NCBI GenBank assembly: GCA_036171695.1
Contig: JAVHRN010000002.1
Span: forward strand, 36,745 to 68,744
Length of the DNA: 32,000 nt
Direction of reading: 5' to 3'
Source: Gallionella sp.
GTDB taxonomy: Bacteria; Pseudomonadota; Gammaproteobacteria; Burkholderiales; Gallionellaceae
Below the pieces are notes generated by a model. The model was given only the letters and a program-made list of their open reading frames with translations. It was not told the DNA's origin and did no database searches. Position numbers and translations under genes: made by a program. Shown piece by piece: positions 3,762-31,007 of this stretch. Each line of letters starts with the position of its first letter. The first letter of the stretch is position 1.

Positions 3762-4663
3762 ACTTAGCTTCTCAACGCTTGGATTTTCAGCAATGGACAG
3801 CCGCACATTTAAGCCGCTTTGAAGTGCGCTTGGGCGAGCTGTTGCCCGCCGCCGAGATTGTCCCGCAACGCTTACATGCCGCGATGCGTTATGCGGTGTT
3901 GGATGGCGGTAAACGGGTGCGTCCCTTGTTGGCATTTGCCGCTGCCGAGTTAGTCGGTGCGGATTTGGCGCGTGCGCAGATTGCGGCGGCAGCGGTTGAG
4001 TTGATTCACGCCTATTCGCTGGTGCATGACGATATGCCGTGCATGGATGACGATGTGTTGCGGCGCGGCAAGCCGACTTGTCATGTGCAATATGACGAGG
4101 CGACCGCCTTGCTAGTCGGCGATAGTTTGCAAACCTTAGCTTTTCAATTGTTGGCGGAACATCGTTTGTGCGATGACGCAGCGCGGCAATTAGACATGCT
4201 CAAACTGTTGGCGCAAGCGAGTGGTTCGCGCGGCATGGCGGGTGGGCAAGCGATAGATTTAGCCAGTGTCGGCACAGCGTTGAGCTTGCCCGAATTAGAA
4301 CAGATGCACATTCATAAAACGGGCGCACTGATACGCGCGGCGATTGTGTTGGGGGCGTATTGCGGCAACGCCACCGCCGCGCAACTAGCGCAGTTAGACC
4401 ACTTCGGTAAGTGTGTGGGCTTGGCGTTTCAGGTGGTCGATGACGTGTTAGACACTGAAGCGGACACCGCGACCTTGGGCAAAACCGCAGGCAAAGATGC
4501 TGAGCACGACAAGCCGACTTATGTGAGTTTGTTGGGTGTGCAAGCGGCGCGGGAAATGGCGCAGCAATTGCATCAAGACGCGTTAAAAAGTTTGCACGAA
4601 TTCGGTGCTGGGGCGCAACGCTTGCGCGAGCTGGCGGACTTTATTGTGTTGAGAAAATTCTGA
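3758..4663 (+). CDS. ispA: Farnesyl diphosphate synthase (polyprenyl synthetase)
   Basis: First Asp-rich motif is [20 protein letters not shown] and the second is FQVVDDVLD. It overlaps the xseB stop by 4 nt. Confidence 0.93.
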
Positions 4664-4664
4664 T

Positions 4665-6512
4665 ATGTATTCAATACTCGACACCCTGCATAGCCCCGCA
4701 GATTTGCGCCAGTTGCCGCGCGAACAATTGCCACAATTAGCGGAGCAGTTGCGTGAATTTTTGGTCGAATCGGTTAGCCAAACAGGCGGACATTTGTCCT
4801 CGAACTTAGGCACGGTAGAGCTGACCATCGCCCTGCATACCGTGTTTAACACGCCCGACGATAAGTTGGTTTGGGATGTGGGACACCAAACTTATGTGCA
4901 TAAAATTTTGACGGGGCGGCGCGCGGCAATGTGCACGCTGCGCATGGCAGGCGGCATCGCAGGCTTTCCCAAGCGCGAAGAAAGTCCTTACGACACCTTT
5001 GGCACAGGCCATTCCAGCACCTCGATTTCGGCGGCGTTGGGGATGGCGGCTGCGGCGCAACTGGCAGGATCGGAACAGCGTGCGGTGGCGATTATTGGTG
5101 ATGGCGCGATGACGGGCGGCATGGCGTTCGAGGCGTTGAATAACGCAGGTGCGATGGATGCGAATCTGCTGGTGATTTTGAACGACAACGATATGTCGAT
5201 TTCCAAACCCGTCGGCGCGTTAAATAATTATTTGGCGAAGCTGATGTCGGGACGTTTTTATTCAGCGATGCGCAATACGGGTGAAAAAGCCTTGCGCGGC
5301 CTACCTAGCGTCCACGAATTAGCCAAGCGCGCCGAAGAACATGTCAAAGGTATGGTTACGCCCAGCACCATGTTTGAGCAGTTTGGTTTTAATTACATTG
5401 GTCCGATTGACGGGCATGACATCAATGTGCTGCTCGATACCTTGAGTAATATCAAAAAACTTAAAGGCCCGCAGTTCTTGCATGTGGTCACACAAAAAGG
5501 CCGTGGCTACGACAAAGCGGAAGCAGATTGTTTGCTCTACCACGGCGTGAGCAAATTCGACCGTAGCAACGGCATCGTGGCGAAATCCGCCAGCGTGCCA
5601 ACTTACACGCAAGTGTTCGGGCAATGGTTGTGCGACATGGCGGAAGCGGATTCGCGCTTAGTCGGTATCACCCCAGCGATGTGCGAAGGCTCTGGGATGC
5701 AAGCCTTTGAGGCAAAATTCCCCACGCGTTATTTTGATGTCGGCATCGCCGAACAACACGCGCTGACTTTCGCGGCGGGCTTGGCGTGCGCAGGCATCAA
5801 GCCTGTCGTGGCGATTTATTCGACCTTCTTGCAACGCGCTTACGATCAACTCATTCACGACATTGCCATCCAAAATTTGCCCGTTATTTTGGCGATAGAT
5901 CGCGGCGGCTTGGTGGGTGCGGATGGTGCGACGCATGCAGGCAGTTTCGATTTAAGTTTTTTGCGTTGCGTGCCGAATATGACGGTGATGACCCCCGCCG
6001 ATGAAAACGAAACGCGGCAAATGTTGTACACCGCGATGCAACTCAATACGCCGAGTGCGGTGCGTTATCCGCGTGGCACAGGACCTGGTGTCGCTGTTCA
6101 ACACGAGATGGTTGCCTTGCCTATCGGCACCGCAGAACTGCGTCGCAGCGGTAAACGTGTGGCGATTTTGGCGTTTGGTTCGATGCTCGCGCCGAGCTTA
6201 AAAGCGGCTGAAGAGCTAGACGCAACCGTGGTGAATATGCGTTTTGTTAAACCGTTGGATAACGCGATGGTGCTGCAATTGGCGCGTGACTATGAACTGT
6301 TGGTGAGCGTCGAAGAAAACGCCATCCAAGGCGGTGCGGGCAGTGCGATTGCCGAATGCTTAAGCGCGCACGGCATGAATGTGCCGCTGTTGCAATTAGG
6401 TTTGCCTGATACCTTTATCGAGCAAGGTGACCCCGTCAAAATGCTGGCGGAGTGCGGCTTAAATGCGGACGGTATCGTCCAGTCAATTCGCACTCAACGC
6501 GCGCCCCATTAA
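4665..6512 (+). CDS. dxs: 1-deoxy-D-xylulose-5-phosphate synthase
   Basis: Contains [14 protein letters not shown] and the ThDP motif [16 protein letters not shown]. At 615 aa it is collinear with Dxs. Confidence 0.97.
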
Positions 6513-7942: not shown

Positions 7943-7968
7943 AAAAGCGCGCCGTAAGGCGCGTTTTT
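7943..7968 (+). terminator. Rho-independent terminator after psiF
   Basis: AAAA-GCGCGCC-GTAA-GGCGCG-TTTTT. This is a GC stem with a tetraloop and a T-run. Confidence 0.8.
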
Positions 7969-8082
7969 CGTTTGTGTGCCACTGCCGCGAGGCAGTGAAT
8001 GCGAGTGTGTATAATCCGCGCTCCGCGCGCGAGTCTCTTTCACATCGCGCGCTTTATTTGGCGCGATACTTAAACAAAACTA

Positions 8083-9429
8083 ATGATAAAAAAATTCCTT
8101 AAACGCGTATTTCGCAAGTCGGCAAAAATCAAGACCGTCGGCAATGCGCAAGTGATTCCTTTTGATGTGCATGGCGTGGCGCGCACGGGCTTGAGTTACG
8201 GCGCGAATAAAGTTTGCGATGGCTTGCAAGCCGCAGGTTTTCAGGCGTATGTGGTCGGTGGCGCGGTGCGCGATTTGCTGCTGCAAAAAAAACCCAAAGA
8301 TTTTGATGTGGCAACAGATGCCACGCCCGAACAAGTGCGCCGTGTGTTTCGTCGCTCGCGCATCATCGGTCGGCGTTTTCGCCTAGTGCATGTGATGTTT
8401 GGCGAAGAAGTGGTCGAGGTATCGACCTTCCGCCGCATGATCGAAGCGGAAGATGCGCAAACTGATGCGCATGGACGCTTGTTGCGCGACAACGAATTTG
8501 GCGACCAAGAGCAAGATGCAGCGCGCCGCGATTTCACCGCCAATGGACTGTTTTACCATCCTGCCACGCAAGAAATTTTTGACTATCACGGCGGCTATGC
8601 CGATACGAAAAATGGCGTGTTGCGCATGATTGGTGACCCGCTAGTTCGTTATCGCGAAGACCCCGTGCGCATGTTGCGCGCGGTGCGGCTGTCAGCCAAG
8701 TTGGGGATTCAAATTGAACCTGCTACCGCTGCGCCAATTCATAAAATGAAAGCCTTGTTGGACAACGTCCCCGAAGCGCGCTTGCTCGATGAAGTATTGA
8801 AAATGTTGCTGTCAGGTCATTCGGTCGAGTGTATTAAAGCTTTGCGCACCATGAATTTGCATCACGGTTTGTTGCCGATGTTAGACACCATCGTGTCGCA
8901 ACCAACTGGTGAAAAATTCATCATGCTGGCGTTGCGCAATACCGATGAACGTTTAAGCCAAGACAAATCCGTGTCGCCCGCTTTTCTATTTGCAGCCTTG
9001 CTTTGGCCTGAAGTTGACAGCACTTGGCAGCGTCACCTCAAAGCGGGCGAACGTCCGTTAGGCGCGATGCACGAAGCGATGGATGAAGTGTTAGCGCGGC
9101 AGAAAAAACGCATGGCGATTCCGCATCGTCAAGATGCGGTGATGAAAGAAATTTGGTTATTGCAACAGCGTTTTGAGCAGCGCGGCGGCTTGCGTCCCTT
9201 GCGTTTACTCGAACATCCGCGCTTCCGTGCGGGTTATGATTTTTTGCTGCTGCGTTGTGCAGCGGGCGAAGTCGATGCCGAGCAGGGGTTGTGGTGGGAT
9301 GAGTTTCAACATGCCAGCGAAGCGCAGCGCACCGAAATGTTGCAACCTGAAAAAACGCTAGAGAAAAAACGTCGCCGCCGTAAACCGCGCAGCAAGCCAG
9401 CGGCAGGTGCGAGTGGTGCGGCAGAGTAA
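8083..9429 (+). CDS. pcnB: Poly(A) polymerase I
   Basis: Contains YVVGGAVRDLLL..KDFDVAT, RIIGRRFRLVHV and RRDFTANGL, with a basic C-terminal tail. It is followed by folK, as in E. coli. Confidence 0.93.
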   Translation: MIKKFLKRVFRKSAKIKTVGNAQVIPFDVHGVARTGLSYGANKVCDGLQAAGFQAYVVGGAVRDLLLQKKPKDFDVATDATPEQVRRVFRRSRIIGRRFRLVHVMFGEEVVEVSTFRRMIEAEDAQTDAHGRLLRDNEFGDQEQDAARRDFTANGLFYHPATQEIFDYHGGYADTKNGVLRMIGDPLVRYREDPVRMLRAVRLSAKLGIQIEPATAAPIHKMKALLDNVPEARLLDEVLKMLLSGHSVECIKALRTMNLHHGLLPMLDTIVSQPTGEKFIMLALRNTDERLSQDKSVSPAFLFAALLWPEVDSTWQRHLKAGERPLGAMHEAMDEVLARQKKRMAIPHRQDAVMKEIWLLQQRFEQRGGLRPLRLLEHPRFRAGYDFLLLRCAAGEVDAEQGLWWDEFQHASEAQRTEMLQPEKTLEKKRRRRKPRSKPAAGASGAAE

Positions 9430-10550: not shown

Positions 10551-11342
10551 ATGCGCAGCTCTTTGACCACCTTAAATAAGTTGCGCGCACAAGGCGACAA
10601 GCTCGCCATGTTGACTTGCTACGACGCAACCTTTGCCACACTTTTAGAAGCGCAGGGCGTGGATGTTTTATTAGTTGGTGACTCGCTAGGCATGGTGCTG
10701 CAAGGCTTTGATAGCACACTGCCCGTCAGCTTGGACGACATGGTGTATCACACGGCGTGCGTGGCGCGCGGTGCAAAACACGCTTTCATCATCGCCGATA
10801 TGCCGTTCGGTACTTTCCAAATCAGTCCCGAAAAAACCTTCGCCCACGCCGCGCGCTTAATGGCAGCGGGTGCACAAATGGTCAAATTAGAAGGCGGCGC
10901 GGCGATGACTGCGACCGTAAAATTTTTAACCGAGCGCGGCATTCCTGTCTGCGCGCACATCGGCTTAACGCCGCAATCAGTGCATCAATTAGGGGGCTAT
11001 CGCGTGCAAGGCAAAGACACGCATGCCGCACAAACACTGCAAACTGATGCCATTGCCTTGCAACACGCAGGCGCGGGCATGGTGGTATTAGAAGCTGTCC
11101 CAGCCGCGCTCGCTGCCGAGATTACTGAGCAATTAAGCATCGCCACCATAGGCATCGGTGCGGGGGTAAATTGCGCGGGACAAGTGTTGGTATTGCACGA
11201 CATGCTGGGTATTTATCCCGGTAAAAAAGCCCGCTTCGTCAAAGACTTTATGGCAGATTCAAACTCGATAGCCGAGGCCGTGGCACGCTATGTTGCAGAA
11301 GTTAAAAGCGGCGCGTTTCCCATGCTAGAGCACAGCTTTTAA
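10551..11342 (+). CDS. panB: 3-methyl-2-oxobutanoate hydroxymethyltransferase
   Basis: Contains [18 protein letters not shown] and KLEGG. The 263-aa length fits. Confidence 0.95.
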
Positions 11343-11791: not shown

Positions 11792-14443
11792 GTGTTTTAT
11801 CAAGCCGTTGCAAAAAAAATTCTCGCGGTACACACGCCGCCTGATTTGCGCGGCATCACGGTTTTAATTCCCAATTACCACGTTGCCCAGCCACTGGCGC
11901 AAGCACTGATTAAGCAGGCAAATGTGCCTGCTTTGTTGTTGCCGACCATGCTCACCTTGAGCGACTGGGCAGCCACAATTACCCTTGAACCCCCCGTCGA
12001 GACTGATACGCAGCGCATTGCGGTGTTGTATCAAACCTTGCGCGATAACGCTTGGTTTGGCAACGCTGACCTGTGGAGCTTGGCGCGCGAGTTGTTGTCT
12101 TTGATGGATGAACTCACGCGTCATCATGTTGCATTGCCAAAATCTCAAGCTGAATTTACCGAGCAATTAGTGGCGGCTTATGCAGCGCGCAATAGCTTTT
12201 CTTTGCAGTTTGAAGCGCGCGTGGTGCATGAACTTTGGTACGCGCTGACGGCGAATTCGTTTGACGCGGTGCGCGCGCAACAACAGCGTTTAGCACAGTT
12301 GGCCAGTGACATTAAGCAGCCGCTATATGTGTTGCTCACCTCGGATTTAAGTGCGCCCGAAACGCAGTTTTTACAACGCTGCGGCGAGCGTGTGGCGGTG
12401 ACGATTTTTGATGTGCGCGAGCAAATTCACTCAGCGGAAAATTGTGCCGTGATTGCCTGCGCTTTACAACGCGACAACACGCCAATGGATTTGCGCAGTG
12501 ATGCTGCGCAGCTTAAAAATAATTCTGCTGCGCAATTAACGGGACGCTTGCAACTCTTCGCCGCACACAGCTTGGAGCAGGAGGCGCGCGCTGCCGAGGT
12601 GCAAATACGCCGTTGGTTATTGGCGGGCAAAAAATCCATCGCGCTGGTGGTGCAAGATCGTTTAGTCGCGCGACGGGTGCGGGCGTTGTTGGAGCGCGCG
12701 CAGGTGCAAGTGCAAGATGAAAGCGGTTGGACATTTGCCACTCTGTCGGTCAGCACCGTGCTGATGGGTTGGCTGGAAACGCTGCAAAACGATTTTTATT
12801 ATCAAGACGTGTTGGATTTGCTCAAGTCGCCGTTGCTGTTCGCTGATGAACTACCCGATTCACGCAAACATGCCGCATTTTTATTTGAAAAAATGGTGCG
12901 CAAGCAAGGCGTGGTCAGCGGCTTGGATAAATTTATAGCGGCTAGTCGCGACACGGATTTAACGCGTGCGCTGGTGCGTTTGCGCCAAGCTGCGGCGATG
13001 TTGCCCAAGGGGCGCGTGACAATTAGTCAGTGGTTAATCGCGCTGCGCAATAGCTTGGAAATTTTGGGTGTGTTGGCAGCGTGGACGGAAGACGCGGCGG
13101 GGCAACAGTTGCTGCAATTGCTCGGCCAGTGGCGCGAGGAATTGCAAAACGACAGCACCAAATGCAGTTTTGCGGAATGGAAACGCTGGCTGTCGCAGCA
13201 GCTCGATTTGAATACTTTCCGCGATATGAGTGTGGTGAGTCCCGTGCTATTTACCCACCTCGCTGCGACGCGCTGGCGCAGTTTTGATGCGGTGTTGTTG
13301 TTAGGCTGTGATGCCAAACATCTGCCTGCACCGAGTTCCAGTATGTGGTTTAACGATGCCGTGCGCGCCGCACTGGGTTTGCCTTTGAGCCGTGTGCAAC
13401 AAGATGCCGCACGCGATGATTTGTTGGGATTATTGGCACTCAATAATGCAGTGTTGGTGACTTGGCAAGCGCATAAAGATGGCGAACCCAATATGCTCAG
13501 TCCGCATTTCGAGATGCTGCGCGCGCTGCATGGGCTGGCGTTTGGCGATGACTTGAACGCGCATGAATTGGCAAAAATTTGGCACGATGCGCAGGTGCAA
13601 AGTGATGAGTTTGTTTTACCGCGTGCCGCTGTGATGCCAATGCCCATCGTGGCCGCCGAGCTTTTACCGCAACGTATTTCGCCTTCTGGCTACAACAGTT
13701 TGGTGGCTTGCCCTTATCAGTTTTATGCGCGCCATGTGCTGCGCCTGAATGACTTGGATGAGGTGCGCGAAGCGATCGACAAGCGCGATTACGGCACTTG
13801 GGTACATGCGGTATTGCAACGTTTCCATGGTGAGTTCCCTTTGTTGCTGAATGAGGATTTAGCCGCTTTGCAACTCGCTTTGCAGCGCATCAGCAAGGAG
13901 GTTTTTGCTGACGCGCTGGCGCACGATTACCTCGCGGTTGCGTGGTTGTTGCGCTGGCAAAAAATGTTGCCTGGTTATTTGGCGTGGCAAATCGAACGTG
14001 AGCAAGCGGGTTGGCGATATACCGCCGCCGAAGAATCATTCGACTTTGCCGTGTTGGAAAATTTAATTTTGCGCGGACGCATAGATCGCGTGGATAGCAA
14101 TGCGGCGGGCGACGTGGCGGTGCTGGATTACAAAACGCAAACCGTCGCAGTGCTTAAAAATAAATTAACAGACGCGGGCGAAGATGTGCAACTGGCTTGC
14201 TACGCGACCGTGCGCAACGCACACGCAGCGGCGTTTGTGAGCTTGGAAGGCGAGGTGGCGGATGTCGCACCTGAGCAGGCGATGGACGAATTAGCGCGAC
14301 TCAATATCGAACGTTTGCAAATCTTGTTCACGCAGTTGCGCAGCGGCGCGCCTTTGCCTGCCAATGGCGTGGCACGAGCGTGTGCCTATTGCGAGATGCG
14401 CGGCTTGTGCCGACAAGGTTCATGGGAGCTGAAAAATGGATAA
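11792..14443 (+). CDS. AddB-like PD-(D/E)XK nuclease subunit of an AddAB-type helicase-nuclease
   Basis: C-terminal nuclease motif GRIDRVD...VAVLDYKT. Cysteines at LVACPYQ and CAYCEMRGLC fit an AddB-type Fe-S staple. A GTG start is assumed and there is no clear RBS. It overlaps the next gene by 8 nt. Confidence 0.78.
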   Translation: MFYQAVAKKILAVHTPPDLRGITVLIPNYHVAQPLAQALIKQANVPALLLPTMLTLSDWAATITLEPPVETDTQRIAVLYQTLRDNAWFGNADLWSLARELLSLMDELTRHHVALPKSQAEFTEQLVAAYAARNSFSLQFEARVVHELWYALTANSFDAVRAQQQRLAQLASDIKQPLYVLLTSDLSAPETQFLQRCGERVAVTIFDVREQIHSAENCAVIACALQRDNTPMDLRSDAAQLKNNSAAQLTGRLQLFAAHSLEQEARAAEVQIRRWLLAGKKSIALVVQDRLVARRVRALLERAQVQVQDESGWTFATLSVSTVLMGWLETLQNDFYYQDVLDLLKSPLLFADELPDSRKHAAFLFEKMVRKQGVVSGLDKFIAASRDTDLTRALVRLRQAAAMLPKGRVTISQWLIALRNSLEILGVLAAWTEDAAGQQLLQLLGQWREELQNDSTKCSFAEWKRWLSQQLDLNTFRDMSVVSPVLFTHLAATRWRSFDAVLLLGCDAKHLPAPSSSMWFNDAVRAALGLPLSRVQQDAARDDLLGLLALNNAVLVTWQAHKDGEPNMLSPHFEMLRALHGLAFGDDLNAHELAKIWHDAQVQSDEFVLPRAAVMPMPIVAAELLPQRISPSGYNSLVACPYQFYARHVLRLNDLDEVREAIDKRDYGTWVHAVLQRFHGEFPLLLNEDLAALQLALQRISKEVFADALAHDYLAVAWLLRWQKMLPGYLAWQIEREQAGWRYTAAEESFDFAVLENLILRGRIDRVDSNAAGDVAVLDYKTQTVAVLKNKLTDAGEDVQLACYATVRNAHAAAFVSLEGEVADVAPEQAMDELARLNIERLQILFTQLRSGAPLPANGVARACAYCEMRGLCRQGSWELKNG

Positions 14444-17400
14444 CGCCGCCGCACTAGACCCAAAAAATTCTGTGGTGGTTGAAGCCTGTGCGGGCAGCGG
14501 CAAGACTTGGCTGCTGGTGTCGCGCATCGTGCGGTTGTTGCTGGCGGATGTGCAGCCCAGCGAAATTTTAGCGATTACCTTTACACGCAAAGCGGCGCAA
14601 GAAATGCAGGAGCGCTTGCGCGATTGGCTGTATGACTTGGCGACTAAAGACGATGAATTCGTGCGCCAGTTTTTGCGCGAACGTGCCATTGCCGAACAGG
14701 ATTTAGATGTGATGTTGCCCAAGGCACGCGGCTTGTATCAGCAATTTTTATTGGCGCAACCGCCGCTCACCATCAACACGTTTCACGGTTGGTTTATGCA
14801 GATTGTGCAACGTGCGCCGCTCGATGCGGGCATGGCGGGCGGGGTGCAATTGGTCGAACAAACTGGCGCGTTATGGGACGAAGCTAGCACCTTATTTTTT
14901 GCCAGCTTGCATCGCCAACCAGATAATGAAATCGCAACTTCGATGAACGTGTTGTTCACCGAATTGGGTTTGTTCGGCACACAAAAAATGTTGCGTGCTT
15001 TCGCCGACAAACGCAGTGAATGGTGGGCTTACACAGCAGGGCAAGAACATCCACTGGACTACGCGCTGGCACAATTGCGCGATGAATTTCAGGTGGATTT
15101 AGACGCGGATGTGCTTGCCGAATATTGTGCCGATGCAGAAATTACCATTGCATTGCAAGCCTTTGCGCAACAGCTCGCCAGCAATGGCACAGAGGTGCAA
15201 CGCAACAACGCTAATAAGTTAATTAGCGCGACTGAAATGGGCGATGGCATGGCGCGTTTCGCCGCGTTGCGTGAATTTTTCTGCACGAAAACCGATGAGC
15301 CGCGTAAGACTTTTAAGCCGACTAAAAAGCAAGACGAGGCGAGTTATTGTGCCGCCCGTGATGCCGCGCAATCTTCGCTGCAAGAAGTGTTGGCGGCTTT
15401 GCAAGCGCAAGCCATTTATCGTTTTAACGAACATGCGCTGCGCTGTGGCGTGGCGATGTTGGAGCGTTATCAGCAATTAAAACAGCAGCAACAATCGTTG
15501 GATTTTTCTGATTTGGAATGGCGTGTGTGCCAGTTGTTGAACAACAGCGAACACGCCGAGTATCTGCAATACAAACTCGATAGCCGTTATAAGCACGTTT
15601 TGCTCGATGAGTTTCAAGATACCAACCCGCTGCAATGGCAGATTTTGCAAGCCTGGTTTGATGCCGCCGCAGCGGTGCAAAGCACGCCGAAAATTTTTGT
15701 GGTGGGCGATCCTAAACAGTCTATTTATCGTTTTCGTCGTGCCGATGCGCGCTTGTTTAACGTGGTGTGCGAATATCTTTTAGAGAATTATCAAGCCAAG
15801 TATTTGCAAAAAAACACCACGCGCCGCAACGCGCCCGCCGTGTTAAATGTGGTCAATGCGGTGTTCGATGGCTTGTCGGATAGCAAGCCAAAATTCGCTG
15901 GCTTCGAGACGCATCTTGCCCATCAAACTGCGTTGTTAGGCTATGTGGAAGTGTTGCCGTTATCGCTTGCTGCTGACGGTAGCAGCGCGACGCTCACGAG
16001 CTCTAATCTGACGCTGCGCAATCCACTTACTGATGCCTACCCCGATGTTGATGAAGGCGCGCGCGAATTGGAAGCGCAAGCCTTCGCGGCAAAATTATCG
16101 AGCATGGTCGGGAGCTGGCAAGTTCATGCAGATGGCAGCGTGCGCGCTTTGCAATGGGGCGACATCATGGTGTTGGTGCGCCGTCGCACCCATTTGAAAA
16201 TCTACGAGCAAGCGTTGCGTGCGCAACAGATTCCTTATCTCACTTCGCGACGCGGCGGTTTGCTCGACACCTTGGAAGCCTCGGATATACAGGCGTTGTT
16301 GACTTTCTTGATGACCCCTTTTGCGGATTTACAACTTGCCCATGTGCTGCGTTCGCCGATATTTTCGTGTAGCGATGATGACTTAATCAGGATTCAGGAT
16401 TCTGGATTTAGGATTCAGCAGAACGGCGTGATAAAGGAAGAAATGGGGTCAGACTTGCAAGAAATGGGGTCAGACTCGATTTCTTTTTGCGTTGCTGATG
16501 TTGGAACTGAATTAGTCGCTCGAAAAGAAATCGAGTCTGACCCCATTTCTTCTCTGCCAGCGAATCCTGAATCCTTAATCCCGAATCCTAGTTGGTGGCT
16601 GCGCTTACAAAGTATTGCACACAGTGACATCGCTACTGCGCACTTAAACCGTGCGCACGATTTACTAAAAAGTTGGTTAGTCCTCGCGGAAAAATTACCC
16701 GTGCATGACTTGCTGGACAAAGTTTATTTCGATGCGGATGTGCAGTCGCGTTATGCCGCTGCCGTACCCAAGGCGATGCGCGCTACGGTGTTGGCGAACT
16801 TGCAGGCGTTTATGGAAATCGCGCTCAATGTCGATGCAGGACGCTATCCGAGTCTGTCGCGCTTTTTGCGTACTTTGGATGAACTCAAACAAGCCGCTGA
16901 CAACGAAGCACCCAATGAAGGCGCGGTGGATCAGGCGGGCAATGCCTTGCGTATTTACACGGTGCATGAAGCTAAAGGCTTAGAAGCCCCGCTGGTGTGG
17001 CTGTTGGATAGCAACGCCAAAGCTCCCATTGATAAGGGCTTTGACGTGTTGTTGGATTGGCCGACCAACGATAAAAAACCTGCGCATCTGTCGCTGTACA
17101 CCGACAAAGCTAGCCACGGTGCGGCGCGTGAAAAGTATTTTGCCGTAGAGAAAATTTTGGCGGATCGCGAAGATATGAATCTGCTCTACGTCGCGATGAC
17201 GCGTGCTAAACAAGTGCTGCTGGTGAGTGGCAGCGGCAAGTTAATCGCCGATACCTGGTATGAGCGCATTGCGAATGCGCAGGGCGAAACTGCTGTGAAC
17301 CCATTGTTGTGTGGCGATGAGGTGGCTGGCACTCAACATCTTGAGCCGCAGTCCAAGTTACTTGCAGATGAATTAGCTGATGCGCGTCTTACTGAACCTT

Positions 17401-17873
17401 TGCCCACAGGCACACGCCAGCCCGCCATGAGTGATGCGCAACGGCGCGGCATTTGGTTACACGCCTTGTTGCAACATCTCGCTGCATCTTCTACATCGTG
17501 GTTAGAAGTTGAGCGCGATGTTTTGCAACGTCGCCTTAACATTCCCGACGAGGCAATCGACATGCTTTGGCAGCAAGCACAACATCTGCTGAACGCGCCG
17601 CATCTCACGCGCTTTTTTGACGTGCAACAATACCGCTGTGCCAGCAATGAAATGCCTTATGTCAATGCAAGTGGCGAGCTTAAACGTATTGACCGTTTAG
17701 TCGAATTTGACACGGAAGTGTGGGTGTTGGATTACAAGTTAAGTGATAGCGAAAACGTCGCGCGCCACCATGCGCAAATGCGCGAATATCAAACCGCTAT
17801 GCAGTCGGTTTATGCCGATAAAAAAGTCCGCTGCGCTTTGTTGTTTGCGGATGGGACACTGAGCGAGCTTTAA
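14436..17873 (+). CDS. AddA-like UvrD/RecB-family helicase-nuclease, carrying an in-frame repeat insertion
   Basis: Walker A ACAGSGKTW, DExx LLDEFQDTN, helicase motifs VGDPKQSIYRFRRA and YTVHEAKGLE, and C-terminal nuclease RIDRLVE...VWVLDYK. Confidence 0.85.
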   Translation: MDNAAALDPKNSVVVEACAGSGKTWLLVSRIVRLLLADVQPSEILAITFTRKAAQEMQERLRDWLYDLATKDDEFVRQFLRERAIAEQDLDVMLPKARGLYQQFLLAQPPLTINTFHGWFMQIVQRAPLDAGMAGGVQLVEQTGALWDEASTLFFASLHRQPDNEIATSMNVLFTELGLFGTQKMLRAFADKRSEWWAYTAGQEHPLDYALAQLRDEFQVDLDADVLAEYCADAEITIALQAFAQQLASNGTEVQRNNANKLISATEMGDGMARFAALREFFCTKTDEPRKTFKPTKKQDEASYCAARDAAQSSLQEVLAALQAQAIYRFNEHALRCGVAMLERYQQLKQQQQSLDFSDLEWRVCQLLNNSEHAEYLQYKLDSRYKHVLLDEFQDTNPLQWQILQAWFDAAAAVQSTPKIFVVGDPKQSIYRFRRADARLFNVVCEYLLENYQAKYLQKNTTRRNAPAVLNVVNAVFDGLSDSKPKFAGFETHLAHQTALLGYVEVLPLSLAADGSSATLTSSNLTLRNPLTDAYPDVDEGARELEAQAFAAKLSSMVGSWQVHADGSVRALQWGDIMVLVRRRTHLKIYEQALRAQQIPYLTSRRGGLLDTLEASDIQALLTFLMTPFADLQLAHVLRSPIFSCSDDDLIRIQDSGFRIQQNGVIKEEMGSDLQEMGSDSISFCVADVGTELVARKEIESDPISSLPANPESLIPNPSWWLRLQSIAHSDIATAHLNRAHDLLKSWLVLAEKLPVHDLLDKVYFDADVQSRYAAAVPKAMRATVLANLQAFMEIALNVDAGRYPSLSRFLRTLDELKQAADNEAPNEGAVDQAGNALRIYTVHEAKGLEAPLVWLLDSNAKAPIDKGFDVLLDWPTNDKKPAHLSLYTDKASHGAAREKYFAVEKILADREDMNLLYVAMTRAKQVLLVSGSGKLIADTWYERIANAQGETAVNPLLCGDEVAGTQHLEPQSKLLADELADARLTEPLPTGTRQPAMSDAQRRGIWLHALLQHLAASSTSWLEVERDVLQRRLNIPDEAIDMLWQQAQHLLNAPHLTRFFDVQQYRCASNEMPYVNASGELKRIDRLVEFDTEVWVLDYKLSDSENVARHHAQMREYQTAMQSVYADKKVRCALLFADGTLSEL
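16387..16591. repeat. Nested palindromic (REP/MITE-like) element inside the addA-like ORF
   Basis: Outer arms are four heptamers, TCAGGAT TCAGGAT TCTGGAT TTAGGAT (16387-16414), against ATCCTGA ATCCTTA ATCCCGA ATCCTAG (16564-16591). The inner part is a perfect 29-bp inverted repeat, 16459-16487 against 16523-16551. An extra direct copy of AAGAAATGGGGTCAGACT lies at 16439-16456. Confidence 0.85.
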
Positions 17874-17892
17874 GCCATGTTGTCCACGGAAT

Positions 17893-17927
17893 AAAAAAGG
17901 AGAGCCTATGACAGACTCTCCTTTTTT
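17893..17927. terminator. Bidirectional intrinsic terminator between the convergent addA-like gene and hemH
   Basis: AAAAAA-GGAGAG-11 nt loop-CTCTCC-TTTTTT. Confidence 0.7.
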
Positions 17928-17942
17928 ATTCTGAGATGAGTA

Positions 17943-21016: not shown

Positions 21017-21268
21017 ATGAAAACATTGCAAACCAATTTAGTGCGCAAACGCGCGGTCAATCTCACCTTAAACGAAGCGTTGGTCGCGCAAGCCAAAGGC
21101 ATGACCGGCAATCTTTCTAATGTGGTCGAGCAACTGTTAGCCGATTATGTGACGCAGCAGCACGCTGCGCGACAAGCAAAGTCACAAGATGCGCAGCTTG
21201 CGGCACAAGGCTGGAATGATTTTAATCAACGCGCAGGTGCGTTCGCCGACGAGCATTCCACGCTGTAA
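21017..21268 (+). CDS. ccdA: Type II antitoxin, CcdA family
   Basis: Shows the typical CcdA layout: KRAVNLTLNEALVAQAKGMTGNLS...WNDFNQRAGAFADEHSTL. It is 83 aa and translationally coupled to ccdB through TAATG. Confidence 0.8.
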   Translation: MKTLQTNLVRKRAVNLTLNEALVAQAKGMTGNLSNVVEQLLADYVTQQHAARQAKSQDAQLAAQGWNDFNQRAGAFADEHSTL

Positions 21269-21597
21269 TGGCACAGTTCGATGTACACAAAAATGTCGGC
21301 AAACAACGCGACGCGATTCCGTTTGTGGTCGTGGTGCAATCGTCGCTCTACGACGGGTACAACCGCCGCGTGGTTGTGCCTCTGGTGCGCCGTAGCACTT
21401 TAGCGCGCACCGCCGTATTCCTCGATACCCCGCTCAATCCCGTGTTCACCGTGAAAGGTATCAAAGTCGTGTTGCACCCGCTGGAAATGGTCTCAGTTGC
21501 ACTGGAAAATCTAGCTGAAAAAGTCGCGACACTAGAGCAAGACGGCGATGCGATTTTAGCTGCGATGGATGAAATGCTTACTAGGGCTTGGGGTTAA
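21268..21597 (+). CDS. ccdB: Type II toxin, CcdB family (gyrase poison family)
   Basis: Contains MAQFDVHKN...IPFVVVVQSSLYDGYNRRVVVPLV and LNPVFTVKGIKVVLHPLEMVSV. The 109-aa length fits. Confidence 0.83.
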   Translation: MAQFDVHKNVGKQRDAIPFVVVVQSSLYDGYNRRVVVPLVRRSTLARTAVFLDTPLNPVFTVKGIKVVLHPLEMVSVALENLAEKVATLEQDGDAILAAMDEMLTRAWG

Positions 21598-21612
21598 CTG
21601 AGCTGGAACCTG

Positions 21613-22851
21613 TTATCTTTTTTGCTTCCCGAGTATCAATTTTTCCATATCGCGTACCTTATCCACTAGTGCTTTCAAATCTTCCCGCGTTGAATCTCCG
21701 TAGCGTTCATGTACCTGCTGACAACATTCGCTTGCCTCATCAAACTTGCTTTGCTCGTAAAGCGTAGCAACTTTGTTAACGAGTGCCATTGCCACCAGCA
21801 GCTGCAATTTAGGTAGCAAAGAGTCACCGTAGCGTTCCTGCACTTGATTAAAATAAGGGATTGCTTCAGCCAGCTTATCTTGCCGATATAGTGTCGTGCC
21901 TAGATTAATGAGTGTCTGGCCAATATGCTCTTGCAAACCTTCCCGCGTGGAATCACCGTAGCATTCCATAATCTTTTTATAACAAGCAATTCCATCTTCA
22001 TACTTTTCTTGTTGAACGAGTATCACGCCTTGGTTATAGAGAGCCTGTGCTATTTGTTCGTCTGTAGCACCGAACACTTCAGCAGACTTTTTCCAGTATT
22101 GCTCAGCGCGTACAAAGTTGTTTTCTGCGTTTGCGGTAAATGCGAGGGTATTCCAATCGTCAAACGTGTATTGAGCTTCTGGCTTATCTTTCAAAGAGGT
22201 GCTGGCTCGCTCTAATGTTTGTTTTTCTGTTTCCGTTAGTGTCGATTTTGAATCAGCAGACAGGGGGTTGGCGGCAATAATTTGGTTGGCATGATCCTGA
22301 ACTTTTTTATTTGATTCCTCAATGTTCTGATGAGCCATATCGGCATGTTCGCCGACCTCTTGAGTGGTTTTTTGCAACTTGTTTTTGAGGTCAGTTATTT
22401 CCTTGTTCACGCCCACCAGATTCTCGTCGAACCATTTTTCTACTTCTGCTTTAGATGTGCTGTTGGCTTTGTCCGCCGCAACCTTTTTAGCTACGCTTTT
22501 AGCTACGCTTTTAGCATCGCTTTTAGCATCGCTTTTTGCTTTGCTATAAGTAAAGTAACTCACAAGAATCAACAGCAGCGTAATGATTAAACTGCCCAGC
22601 GCAATGAGGTGTCCTAGCCAATCCACCTGATGATTGATTTGTTCGATGCGCTCGTTTTGGCTGGTGACTAATTGTTTGTGGAATTCCAAATCTTTCTGCT
22701 GGCTTTCTTTGGCAGCATCCATTTTGGCTTCAGTCTGCGCTTTGAAAATTTGTAGCTCGGTGTCGCTCGACGATTTCGCGATTGCGCTGCTTGCGGTCAG
22801 CACAGTGAATAAAGAGAGTGCAATAAAAATTTGAGTGATTAACTTAGTCAT
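21613..22851 (-). CDS. Orphan membrane-anchored coiled-coil / TPR-like repeat protein of unknown function
   Basis: N-terminal hydrophobic segment MTKLITQIFIALSLFTVLTASSAIA, a second TM segment LGHLIALGSLIITLLLILVSYFTY, and a Lys-rich KSDAKSDAKSVAKSVAKK repeat. The C-terminus has roughly 43-residue repeats, each with an (E/C)(R/C)YGDS motif. I prefer the start at 22851, because the longer ORF overlaps higA. The gene is AT-richer than its neighbours. Confidence 0.7.
   Translation of the reverse strand: MTKLITQIFIALSLFTVLTASSAIAKSSSDTELQIFKAQTEAKMDAAKESQQKDLEFHKQLVTSQNERIEQINHQVDWLGHLIALGSLIITLLLILVSYFTYSKAKSDAKSDAKSVAKSVAKKVAADKANSTSKAEVEKWFDENLVGVNKEITDLKNKLQKTTQEVGEHADMAHQNIEESNKKVQDHANQIIAANPLSADSKSTLTETEKQTLERASTSLKDKPEAQYTFDDWNTLAFTANAENNFVRAEQYWKKSAEVFGATDEQIAQALYNQGVILVQQEKYEDGIACYKKIMECYGDSTREGLQEHIGQTLINLGTTLYRQDKLAEAIPYFNQVQERYGDSLLPKLQLLVAMALVNKVATLYEQSKFDEASECCQQVHERYGDSTREDLKALVDKVRDMEKLILGKQKR
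22489..22536. repeat. Four tandem 12-bp repeats inside the TPR gene
   Basis: AGCTACGCTTTT twice, then AGCATCGCTTTT twice. On the coding strand these encode the KSDA/KSVA tetrapeptide repeats. Confidence 0.9.
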
Positions 22852-22870
22852 CAGGATTCTCAATAAGTGA

Positions 22871-23299
22871 TTATAAAAATACCGCAGGCGAAACATGGAA
22901 TCGGCTGGCGAGCGCTTTGACTTGGCGGGTGTTGAGTTCGCGTTTGCCGTTCAATACTGCGGAGACGATGCTTTGCCCGCCTAACTCTTCGGCTAAGTCG
23001 CTTTGTTTGAGTGCGTGTTCGCTCATTAAGTAGGCAAGCACGGCGGCGGGATTTGCTTCGGGTAGGCTTAGATTTTTTGCTTCGTAGTGTTCGATTTCTT
23101 TGCTGACAATATCGAGCAGCGGCATCAGACGATGCGATTCATTCGCGCCGATTTGGTCTAGCAATTCATCCATGTTGCGCACCCGATTTTTGTAGTCGCG
23201 CGCACTGCTAATCGGGCCGAGTGGCAGCAGTTTATTCAGACCTAGCCACGCTGTTTGCACCAAGGCGAGATTGAGATGGTGTTCAGCGATGATGTTCAT
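22871..23299 (-). CDS. higA: HigA-family antitoxin (XRE helix-turn-helix)
   Basis: C-terminal HTH LKQSDLAEELGGQSIVSAVLNGKRELNTRQVKALASRFHVSPAVFL. It is the same length and layout as E. coli HigA and overlaps higB by 4 nt. Confidence 0.85.
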   Translation of the reverse strand: MNIIAEHHLNLALVQTAWLGLNKLLPLGPISSARDYKNRVRNMDELLDQIGANESHRLMPLLDIVSKEIEHYEAKNLSLPEANPAAVLAYLMSEHALKQSDLAEELGGQSIVSAVLNGKRELNTRQVKALASRFHVSPAVFL

Positions 23300-29290: not shown

Positions 29291-30499
29291 ATGAAATTAC
29301 CGATTTACATGGATTATTCGGCAACTACGCCTGTTGATGCGCGTGTGGCAGCTAAAATGATTCCTTATTTGACCGAGCAATATGGCAATCCAGCTAGTCG
29401 TTCGCATCACTATGGTTGGGAGGCCGAAGAGGCTGTTGAATTGGCGCGTACGCAAGTTGCCGCGTTGGTCAATGCCGATCCGAAAGAAATTGTTTGGACT
29501 TCTGGTGCGACTGAATCGAATAATTTGGCGATTAAAGGCGCAGCGCATTTTTACCAAGGTAAGGGCAAACACATTGTCACTATGCGCATTGAGCACAAGG
29601 CGGTTATCGACACCGTGCGCGAGTTAGAACGCGAGGGTTTTAGCGCGACCTATCTTGACCCGCAAACGAATGGTTTGTTGGATTTAGAGGTGTTCAAAGC
29701 AGCTCTGCGTCCAGATACGATTTTAGTGTCGATCATGCTGGTTAATAATGAAATCGGCGTGGTGCAAGACGTTGCCGCGATTGGTGAAATTTGCCGTGAA
29801 CGCGGCATTATTTTTCATGTGGATGCGGCGCAAGCGACGGGCAAAGTCAGCATTGATTTGCAAAAATTAAAAGTGGATTTGATGTCGTTTTCAGCTCATA
29901 AAACCTACGGTCCAAAAGGTATCGGTGCGCTGTATGTACAACGTAAGCCACGGGTGCGTTTGGAAGCACAAATGCATGGCGGTGGTCACGAGCGTGGGAT
30001 GCGTTCGGGTACTTTGGCGACACATCAAATCGTCGGTATGGGCGAAGCATTCCGTATCGCGCAAGCAGAAATGGCGAGCGAAAATGAACGCGTGCGTATG
30101 TTGCGCGATCGCTTGATGACAGGCTTGATGACGATGGAAGAGGTGCATCTAAACGGTGATATTGAGCGGCGTGTACCGCACAATTTGAATTTGAGTTTTA
30201 ATTTTGTCGAAGGCGAATCGCTGATTATGGCGATTAAAGATGTCGCGGTTTCCAGCGGCTCGGCGTGTACTTCGGCCAGTCTAGAACCATCGTATGTGTT
30301 GCGCGCTTTAGGGCGCAGCGATGAATTGGCACATAGCTCAATTCGTTTCTCGATTGGACGTTTTACGACCGTTGAAGAAGTGGATTTTGTGATTGATTTG
30401 ATGAAGCAAAAAATCGGCAAATTACGCGAACTTTCCCCGCTTTGGGAAATGTACCAAGACGGTGTTGACCTCAATACCGTGCAGTGGGCAGCACATTAA
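29291..30499 (+). CDS. iscS: Cysteine desulfurase IscS
   Basis: Contains [16 protein letters not shown], the PLP lysine in [10 protein letters not shown], the active-site SSGSACTS, and a C-terminal WAAH. Confidence 0.97.
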
Positions 30500-30501
30500 C
30501 A

Positions 30502-30579
30502 ACAGGACGCAGAGTACAGGATGCAGGATTAAGCCAAAACCGCTTTTCTGAATCCTGTATCCCGCATCCTGAATCCTTA
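30502..30579. repeat. Heptamer-array palindrome in the iscS-iscU spacer, of the same family as the outer arms of the addA insert
   Basis: ACAGGAC GCAGAGT ACAGGAT GCAGGAT (30502-30529), a 22-nt loop, then ATCCTGT ATCCCGC ATCCTGA ATCCTTA (30552-30579). The iscU RBS AGGAG begins at the last base of the element. Confidence 0.8.
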
Positions 30580-30590
30580 GGAGAACCAAA

Positions 30591-31007
30591 ATGGCATACA
30601 GCGAAAAACTTTTAGATCATTACGAAAATCCGCGTAACGTGGGCTCGTTCGCCAAAGATGCAGAAGGCTTGGGCACGGGCATGGTTGGTGCGCCAGCTTG
30701 TGGCGATGTGATGAAATTGCAAATCAAAGTCAGTAAAGACGGCATCATCGAAGATGCTAAATTTAAGACGTATGGCTGCGGTTCAGCGATTGCATCTAGT
30801 TCCTTGGTAACCGAATGGGTTAAAGGTAAAACGGTCGATCAAGCGTTGTTGATTAAGAACACGCAAATCGCTGAAGAATTAGCTTTGCCCCCAGTGAAAA
30901 TCCATTGTTCGATTTTGGCGGAAGATGCCATTAAAGCGGCAGTGGCGGATTACAAAGCTAAGCATGGTGAGAGTATTGACTTGCCTGCTTGTCACGGCAG
31001 CGTGTAA
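30591..31007 (+). CDS. iscU: Fe-S cluster scaffold IscU
   Basis: Contains YENPRNVG, GAPACGDVM, YGCGSAIASS and KIHCS. Confidence 0.97.
   Translation: MAYSEKLLDHYENPRNVGSFAKDAEGLGTGMVGAPACGDVMKLQIKVSKDGIIEDAKFKTYGCGSAIASSSLVTEWVKGKTVDQALLIKNTQIAEELALPPVKIHCSILAEDAIKAAVADYKAKHGESIDLPACHGSV

Follow-up and report, generated by a model that had tools for sequence, protein, structure and literature searches.

How does a two-tier palindrome come to lie, in frame, in the middle of a helicase-nuclease gene that is still intact? The question is raised by a stretch of 32,000 nucleotides (hereafter the window) of DNA from Gallionella, an iron-oxidising bacterium, in which a repeat search found a nested palindrome of 205 bp at 16387-16591, within the open reading frame (ORF) of addA. 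We think it likely that this segment consists of two non-autonomous palindromic repeats, which entered addA at different times and are tolerated there as translated passengers.

The outer tier is formed by two arrays of heptamers. The left arm (16387-16418; coordinates of this and the other parts of the element, of addA, of addB and of the second heptamer palindrome refer to the plus strand) holds 4.6 tandem copies of TCAGGAT/GGATTCA, detected with period 7 by Tandem Repeats Finder and translated as IQDSGFRIQ. The right arm (16562-16591) holds four tandem heptamers, GAATCCT/ATCCTGA, translated as NPESLIPNP, and 28 nt of it are identical to the right arm of a related locus, L003. The mirrored arms described in the initial annotation are thus real: 16387-16418 forms an inverted repeat with 16562-16589, and the complementarity is 86-91% (to 16589 or 16591). 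Between them lies the inner element (16459-16551), in which a transposase-associated repeat forms an inverted doublet of 93 nt, or 31 codons. The repeat search bore out the earlier description of its arms (16459-16487 and 16523-16551) as a perfect 29-nt inverted repeat around a 35-nt loop (16488-16522). Each arm is itself an imperfect palindrome, AAGAAATGGGGTC / GACTCGATTTCTT, with 13-nt half-arms that are 85% complementary, and the motif GGGGTCAG at 16466-16473 has its complement in the right arm. Directly upstream is a partial head copy, or stutter, of the inner element (16438-16458), direct, 3′-truncated and 21 nt long, which consists of AAGAAATGGGGTCAGACT followed by TGC. It provides a third, direct copy of the 18-mer AAGAAATGGGGTCAGACT; this copy had been noticed before, and its position is to be corrected from 16439-16456 to 16438-16455. 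By comparison with the loop of L003, which is without an inner element, 16419-16437 would be the left remnant of the original loop of the outer element and 16552-16561 the right remnant, where CTGCCAGCG in the window matches CTGCACCAGCG in L003.

This nested palindrome is not due to chance, because matches and folding are far beyond those of shuffled sequences. The 18-mer AAGAAATGGGGTCAGACT was found three times in the window with 0 expected, heptamer dimers nine times with 0.03 expected, and a 219-nt stretch folded with z = -9.7 as DNA and z = -10.7 as RNA (0 of 200 shuffles folded as well). An Rfam scan of 16300-16700 gave only sub-threshold eukaryotic microRNA-precursor hairpins, the best with 45 bits against a gathering score of 180. 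We rejected membership of such a family, as these matches reflect the long perfect stem. A full-text literature search with the core sequence gave chance matches in animal papers only.

The host gene, addA (14436-17873), encodes helicase-nuclease subunit A of 1145 amino acids, with UvrD-helicase N- and C-terminal domains followed by a C-terminal PD-(D/E)XK nuclease domain (PF00580, PF13361, PF12705). Directly upstream, and overlapping its start, is addB (11792-14443; PF12705, TIGR02786 addB_alphas), the context of an AddAB operon. The best NCBIfam match of AddA, TIGR02784 (addA_alphas), reached 448 bits, under the equivalog cut-off of 861; we therefore regard the product as an AddA-type protein of a divergent, betaproteobacterial branch. 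The closest relatives carry the names Gallionella or Sideroxydans, and an identical protein (P0001) is encoded on contig JAVHQK010000090.1 of the metagenome-assembled genome (MAG) GCA_036171095.1.

The ORF of 1145 codons is stop-free across the whole element, as the initial annotation had stated with an exact peptide, and domains and motifs are intact: the Walker A motif GSGKT is at residues 20-24 and the nuclease motif DYK at 1099-1101. Only a single frame of the six is free of stops from one end of the element to the other. The antisense ORF 16415-16720 had been read as a sign of selection against stop codons. This reading does not hold: the ORF ends within the left heptamer arm, so that it does not span the whole element, and over the core its phase is the mirror image of the sense frame. 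Its openness over the core results from dyad symmetry and is not independent evidence of selection.

Symmetry has a second consequence. All six inner units in Gallionellaceae are exactly 93 nt (31 codons), and the extra head copy in the window is 21 nt. One phase of the unit is stop-free in either orientation, giving the peptide …EEMGSDSIS…KEIESDPIS…; the phase is the same both ways because the unit is symmetric. Therefore, about a third of its insertions into a tolerant loop should be translatable without further change. Predicted tryptic peptides of the insert are IQQNGVIK, EEMGSDLQEMGSDSISFCVADVGTELVAR and EIESDPISSLPANPESLIPNPSWWLR.

The insertion site is a hypervariable, length-tolerant surface loop of helicase subdomain 2B. 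In an alignment of 41 AddA sequences, the stretch from LRSPIFSCSDxDL to SWWxRLQ had 11 residues in the shortest orthologues, 69 in the window and up to 84 elsewhere. Palindrome-type peptides were seen at about six length-variable sites of the alignment. The alignment with Bacillus subtilis AddA (PDB 3U44) breaks exactly at the insert, with query residues 653-730 corresponding to AddA residues 661-684. With helicase motif IV (~577-585) before it and motif V (~842-850) after it, this break has the position that subdomain 2B takes in superfamily 1 helicases. In an AlphaFold2 model, residues 658-717 are coil between two helices, with a predicted local distance difference test (pLDDT) score of 22-27. 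The model, built from the 41-sequence alignment, is poor overall (mean pLDDT 58, predicted template modelling score 0.32) and was used for this statement on coil alone. The extra loop of ~60 residues is probably disordered.

The two tiers occur separately in relatives, which supports the interpretation of nesting. At L003, whose flanks have 87-90% DNA identity to the window, the heptamer palindrome is present and the core is absent. Its left arm has seven heptamers, six of them perfect, and its right arm is identical to that of the window over 28 nt. At L002, from a Sideroxydans MAG, the inner element stands alone at the same site, with 1.5 heptamers on its left and in the orientation opposite to that in the window. 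Distant outgroups and the more distant metagenomic relatives have no insert at this site of AddA. The proposal that one element had landed in the loop of another is thus upheld by a locus with the outer element alone, a locus with the inner element alone and outgroups with neither.

Other relatives carry other inserts at the same addA site: a long heptamer palindrome in L004, a REP (repetitive extragenic palindromic sequence) of the GTAG type in L005, which recurs after sodB in the same contig, a palindrome of 'CCGTTCGCCCTGAGCTTG' in L112 and one of 'GAGAGGGTTGGGGAGAGGG' in L113; in L114 the site is empty. Across orthologues, this single loop has held at least five palindromic families that are unrelated to one another. 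On a neighbor-joining tree of AddA, the distribution of insert types is patchy, with differences even between near relatives. The site is empty in several clades, and among the distinct alleles of at least 45 nt, 10 of 26 fold better than shuffles at z < -3 while the remainder look decayed. Because many alleles have lost the hairpin, the inserts look like tolerated passengers and not like a conserved structure.

In L113, copies of a GTCATTCCCGCG(A/C)AAGCGGGAATCCAG palindrome lie at 5085-5206 and 7965-8111, upstream of addB and between addB and addA, and a 70-codon ORF is in place of the usual addB/addA overlap.

The inner units of the window and L002 at this site are 90.3% identical without gaps, solely when aligned as reverse complements. 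Either there were two insertions or there was one insertion followed by inversion of the loop; the identity of the units (90%) against that of the flanks (86%) does not discriminate between independent insertions and a single ancient one with loop inversion. The addA gene of L002 (Sideroxydans MAG Simpson2) has three 93-nt units in frame, at 3823-3915, 4612-4704 and 4819-4911 (residues ~684, ~947 and ~1016). The two C-terminal units, 207 nt apart, are 95.7% identical, loop included, which indicates a recent copy. At the second addA site, L003 4845-4935, L002 4612-4704 and L112 12798-12890 stand opposite ~17262-17390 of the window (AddA ~943-985), where the native linker has ~30 residues. In the variant of L112 and L095 at that site, the loop resembles native linker codons (…CTTGTGGCGATG…).

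Where does the inner element come from? We scanned one genome per species (596 Gb) with the query GAAATGGGSTCAGACTCG and obtained 106 stretches, against ~35 expected by our own arithmetic for a random 18-mer of like degeneracy. They were in Beta-, Gamma- and Alphaproteobacteria, Gemmatimonadaceae, Nitrospirae and others, with eight loci each in several genomes. An inverted partner was within 120 nt of 58 of the 128 motif matches, and members also occur as dimers and clusters. An ORF resembling a REP-associated tyrosine transposase (RAYT) was detected by tblastn in 24 of the 106 loci and was at most 250 nt from the motif in 17. All ten such ORFs tested matched PF01797 above its gathering threshold; with NF047646, 'REP-associated tyrosine transposase', they scored 54-81 bits, borderline to the cut-off of 80. 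The motif lies upstream of the transposase gene, in the orientation of that gene, in L012, L023, L060, L077, L102 and L103, and downstream of it, inverted, in L021, L058, L104 and L065. One pair of motif and RAYT-like gene (L061) is in Nitrotoga, a genus placed in Gallionellaceae by GTDB. The unit, GAAATGGGGTCAGACTCGATTTC, carries neither a GTAG nor a CGTC tag. Its arm motif GGGGTCAG fits GGGGWSAS, the motif of TIRtron inverted repeats in Di Nocera et al. (PMC3733652). Judged by these sequences, the inner element is best classified as a REPIN-like doublet of a TIRYT/RAYT-associated repeat.

A Tn3-family terminal repeat, suggested by the GGGG start, was rejected: the unit begins 5 nt upstream of GGGG, a 5-bp duplication is absent and the associated gene is a Y1 transposase. 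For a MITE derived from an insertion sequence, arms resembling terminal inverted repeats are present, but a target-site duplication is not: none of the six units lies between direct repeats.

Partial heads such as the one in the window recur in other genomes, at most 70 nt upstream of the full motif in 47 of 128 matches and downstream in 20 of 128. These stuttered, 3′-truncated heads read …GAAATGG…GAAATGGGGT…GAAATGGGGTCAGACTCGATT; examples, drawn from loci L006-L111, are L074 1461-2181, L041 573-669 and L056 2631-2758, besides 16438-16458 of the window. They may be a footprint of the mobilisation mechanism. To our knowledge, such stuttered head copies have not been described.

From these comparisons, the following history can be proposed. 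An inverted heptamer-array palindrome would have become established first, in an ancestor of this clade of Gallionellaceae, within the short 2B loop that separates the LRSPIFSCSDxDL helix from the SWWxRLQ helix. The 93-nt GAAATGGGGTCAGACTCGATTTC doublet would then have entered the loop of the heptamer palindrome, together with its 21-nt partial head copy. Its mobilisation was most likely a hairpin-guided cut-and-paste or copying of single strands by a RAYT-like (TIRYT-type) HUH/Y1 transposase, because the family of the doublet flanks RAYT-like Y1 genes in other genomes. Hairpin-guided mobilisation of single strands has been proposed for REPs and REPINs. The insertion would survive because the unit has 31 codons and is stop-free in the same phase in both orientations, and because the site is a length-tolerant surface loop. 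Afterwards, the arrays would change by slippage and the palindromes decay or be replaced, leaving the patchwork seen in relatives. The product would be an AddA protein with intact catalytic motifs and a predicted loop of ~60 residues.

Several observations weigh against this history. No target-site duplication and no clean junction between empty and filled states could be defined when filled and unfilled sites were compared. At the second addA site, a native linker of similar length has given way to the unit, which is not simply an addition there. In the 32-kb window, where the core occupies one locus, and in 163 kb of related loci we saw neither a transposase of this type nor a copy of the core outside genes, so that activity in the source genome is only putative. 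In the species-representative genomes of L026, L056 and L095, the locus that the scan recovered with the exact motif lies in addA, which is odd for a freely dispersing element. The structural model has low confidence overall, with the mean pLDDT given above, and the heptamer palindrome could have grown in place by slippage. 

A single metagenome scan yielded 48 addA loci, and among them no near-identical allele that would reveal the core as present in one and absent from another copy of the same background. In place of the core, L003 carries GGAAATGAAAATTTG, which may be a footprint, a target or a chance sequence.

Growth in place is the alternative that survives best, and it concerns the outer tier alone: heptamers might have multiplied, as in a microsatellite, by slippage on both sides of a small pre-existing inverted repeat. 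The number of units left and right varies between arms and relatives (4/4 in the window, 7/4 in L003, about 5/9 in L004), the unit drifts by lineage (GGATTCA, GGAATCA or CAAGGAN, with a complementary right arm each time), and no link of the heptamer palindrome to a transposase was found, as this alternative would have it. Closely similar arrays at unlinked places speak against it. Heptamer-array palindromes were found in Gallionellaceae loci only, and there at the addA site of the window, at a second addA site (L124, L127/L128, P0031 and P0090) and in the iscS-iscU spacer. The spacer copy, at 30502-30579 (iscS stops at 30499 and iscU begins at 30591), is extragenic and is as real as the initial annotation had it. 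Such a distribution requires dispersal or a repeated, identical origin in situ. We regard growth in place as a tentative possibility and prefer dispersal followed by slippage for the outer tier. The L003 addA frame contains six perfect GGATTCA heptamers (4034-4075), where gain or loss of one or two units would shift the frame; the tract is possibly slippage-prone.

A second alternative gives the host gene a role: repair genes would be preferred or selected targets, in which insertion alters repair or recombination to the benefit of the host or the element. Possible effects are a mutator or hyper-recombination phenotype, altered handling of hairpin breaks, or frameshift switching via the heptamer arrays, for which the six perfect in-frame heptamers of L003 would be prone. 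In the 163 kb of Gallionellaceae loci, all six inner units are inside addA, which makes up ~17% of that DNA, at three different sites and with up to three units in one gene. Three loci recovered by the motif alone, L026, L056 and L095, are all addA. In-frame palindromes are also in addB, at L005 7997-8056 and L112 7926-8001 (type 'VRPELVEG…STSS'), and in mutS of L002, as a perfect 23-nt GTAG REP pair (10739-10796). In other taxa, replication and repair genes, among them recBCD and those of UvrD/Rep helicases, hold a disproportionate share of the intragenic REPs; sometimes a genome has REP-tagged ORFs nowhere else, and the bias was argued to be 'not fortuitous' (PMC3733652). The enrichment in our loci is suggestive only, because the sampling was centered on addA, and the neighbours of addA are compact housekeeping genes. 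AddA and AddB are long and fast-evolving proteins with several length-variable loops, so that tolerance alone predicts enrichment; moreover, an insert is missing from many orthologues and has decayed in many alleles. We therefore consider preferred or selected insertion into repair genes unlikely, and it is still harder to believe that addA, addB and mutS of Gallionellaceae are specific sinks for hairpin-forming repeats through targeting or selected insertion. If they were, the insert might tune the regulatory 2B subdomain of AddA, and out-of-frame heptamer slippage might switch AddAB off and produce transient hyper-recombining or phage-sensitive variants; the locus would then offer a tractable system, the first of its kind, for the bias of intragenic REPs towards repair genes.

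A third alternative makes the hairpin itself functional, as a stem-loop in DNA or mRNA (pause, processing or attenuation) under selection, with the differing sequences as compensatory replacements. Hairpins of unrelated sequence do occupy the same few codons in many lineages, the right heptamer array complements the left in each lineage despite the differing unit (GGATTCA, GGAATCA, CAAGGAN), and the hairpin of the window is extremely stable. Yet of the 26 alleles with 45 nt or more, 16 do not reach a folding z-score below -3 against shuffles, an insert is missing from several clades and from all outgroups, members of these families also turn up between genes and elsewhere in addA, and arms could be kept matched by correction within the hairpin, with no selection. 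Since most alleles have lost their folding potential and several clades are empty, we rejected a conserved functional hairpin as the main explanation and think it very improbable.

Palindromes can mislead assemblers and the source is a MAG, but a palindromic chimera is scarcely conceivable here, as orthologues show collinear flanks and a collinear reading frame, two contigs encode the identical protein, and independent assemblies share the outer arms (L003) or the 93-nt unit (L002, L003, L056, L095, L112) in addA.

We return to two passenger repeats, nested in a tolerant loop, and ask how they relate to known systems. The doublets called REP or REPIN are mobilised by RAYT tyrosine transposases, as Bertels and Rainey reportedly described in 2011. 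The inner element resembles these and the TIRtrons, whose terminal inverted repeats (TIRs) go with TIRYT tyrosine (HUH-Y1) transposases (Di Nocera et al. 2013, PMC3733652), in that two inverted copies of a short imperfect palindrome, with a spacer of ~35 nt, form one long hairpin. Further likenesses are that the unit flanks RAYT-like genes in other genomes, upstream in gene orientation or downstream inverted, that it occurs as singletons, dimers and clusters, and that GGGGTCAG of the inner arm fits the GGGGWSAS TIR motif. It differs from both systems in lying in frame inside a conserved gene and not in extragenic DNA. From REPINs it differs also in having no GTAG or CGTC tag and in having neither a high-copy population nor a cognate transposase in the DNA of this lineage that was examined (the 32-kb window and the 163 kb of loci). 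Several phyla share the 18-nt core of the inner element, in contrast to classical REPs, most of which are specific to a species.

The initial annotation had known of no precedent for this kind of element or for addA, which was too strong. Intragenic REP dimers that code for 20-30 residues (clusters up to 82) have been described in frame in UvrABCD, UvrD/Rep helicase, recBCD, Pol I and DnaE2, sometimes with two inserts per gene (PMC3733652). Those are GTAG or CGTC REPs of other taxa; here, a TIRYT-type doublet and a heptamer palindrome are nested, the host is addA (addB and mutS in relatives) of Gallionellaceae, and one loop has received at least five families.

The initial annotation had also compared the segment with Rickettsia palindromic elements (RPEs), which, as far as the citing articles relate it, are ~100-150 bp long and lie in frame in functional genes with a fold-compatible peptide (Ogata et al., cited in PMC10969869 and PMC3733652). 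The comparison holds for the mode of colonisation alone, namely insertion in frame into a host gene that keeps its catalytic motifs. Insert-free orthologues exist and no distant orthologue has a homologous, non-palindromic peptide at this place; the sub-elements are found elsewhere, the inner one at two other addA sites and with its motif in about 100 loci of other genomes, the outer one in the iscS-iscU spacer. The phylum and the sequence families are unrelated, the host here being a betaproteobacterium; RPEs enter many unrelated metabolic genes and have no known transposase, in contrast to the transposase association of the inner element. With the heptamer repeats of cyanobacteria (short tandemly repeated repetitive sequences, STRR) and of Beggiatoaceae (TAACTGA), which are direct and mostly intergenic arrays (PMC4679880), the outer arms share short arrays of 7-nt units in variable copy number. 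The resemblance is in period only, as the GGATTCA arrays of the window are inverted as a palindrome and in a reading frame.

In-frame palindromic repeats in DNA-repair genes are thus a known kind, of which the window adds a clear new example. What is notable is the nesting of two families, the transposase-associated unit of 31 codons and the way in which one loop has taken in many families. By definition, REPs and REPINs are extragenic, and the few translated cases show an unexplained concentration in replication and repair genes. In the addA series, one loop is found empty, with the outer element only, with the inner element only in either orientation, nested and decayed. This series makes it testable whether the bias is caused by targeting, tolerance or selection, how a symmetric 31-codon unit stays translatable, and what a large disordered insert in 2B does to AddAB. 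For annotation, such inserts inflate and vary protein length in MAGs, and the recurrent peptides 'MGSDSIS / ESDPIS', 'RIQDSGF / NPESLIP', 'VRPELVEG' and 'GEGWGEG' should not be read as domains.

Two minor observations concern the surroundings of addA. Directly after its stop, at 17889-17931, is a 19-nt inverted repeat, 95% complementary, with a 5-nt loop and AT-rich ends; lying between addA and hemH, which converge on it, the repeat probably acts as a terminator in both directions. Farther downstream, the interval between udg and mutS (~21017-23299) is a variable island, which in the window contains ccdA/ccdB (21017-21597), an ORF for a tetratricopeptide repeat (TPR) protein (21613-22896) and a helix-turn-helix ORF (22871-23299). 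The ccdAB toxin-antitoxin genes are present in the window and L003, the TPR protein in the window, and other genes in L002 and L112. Within the TPR ORF, a 12-nt tandem repeat of 4.7 copies lies at 22485-22540.

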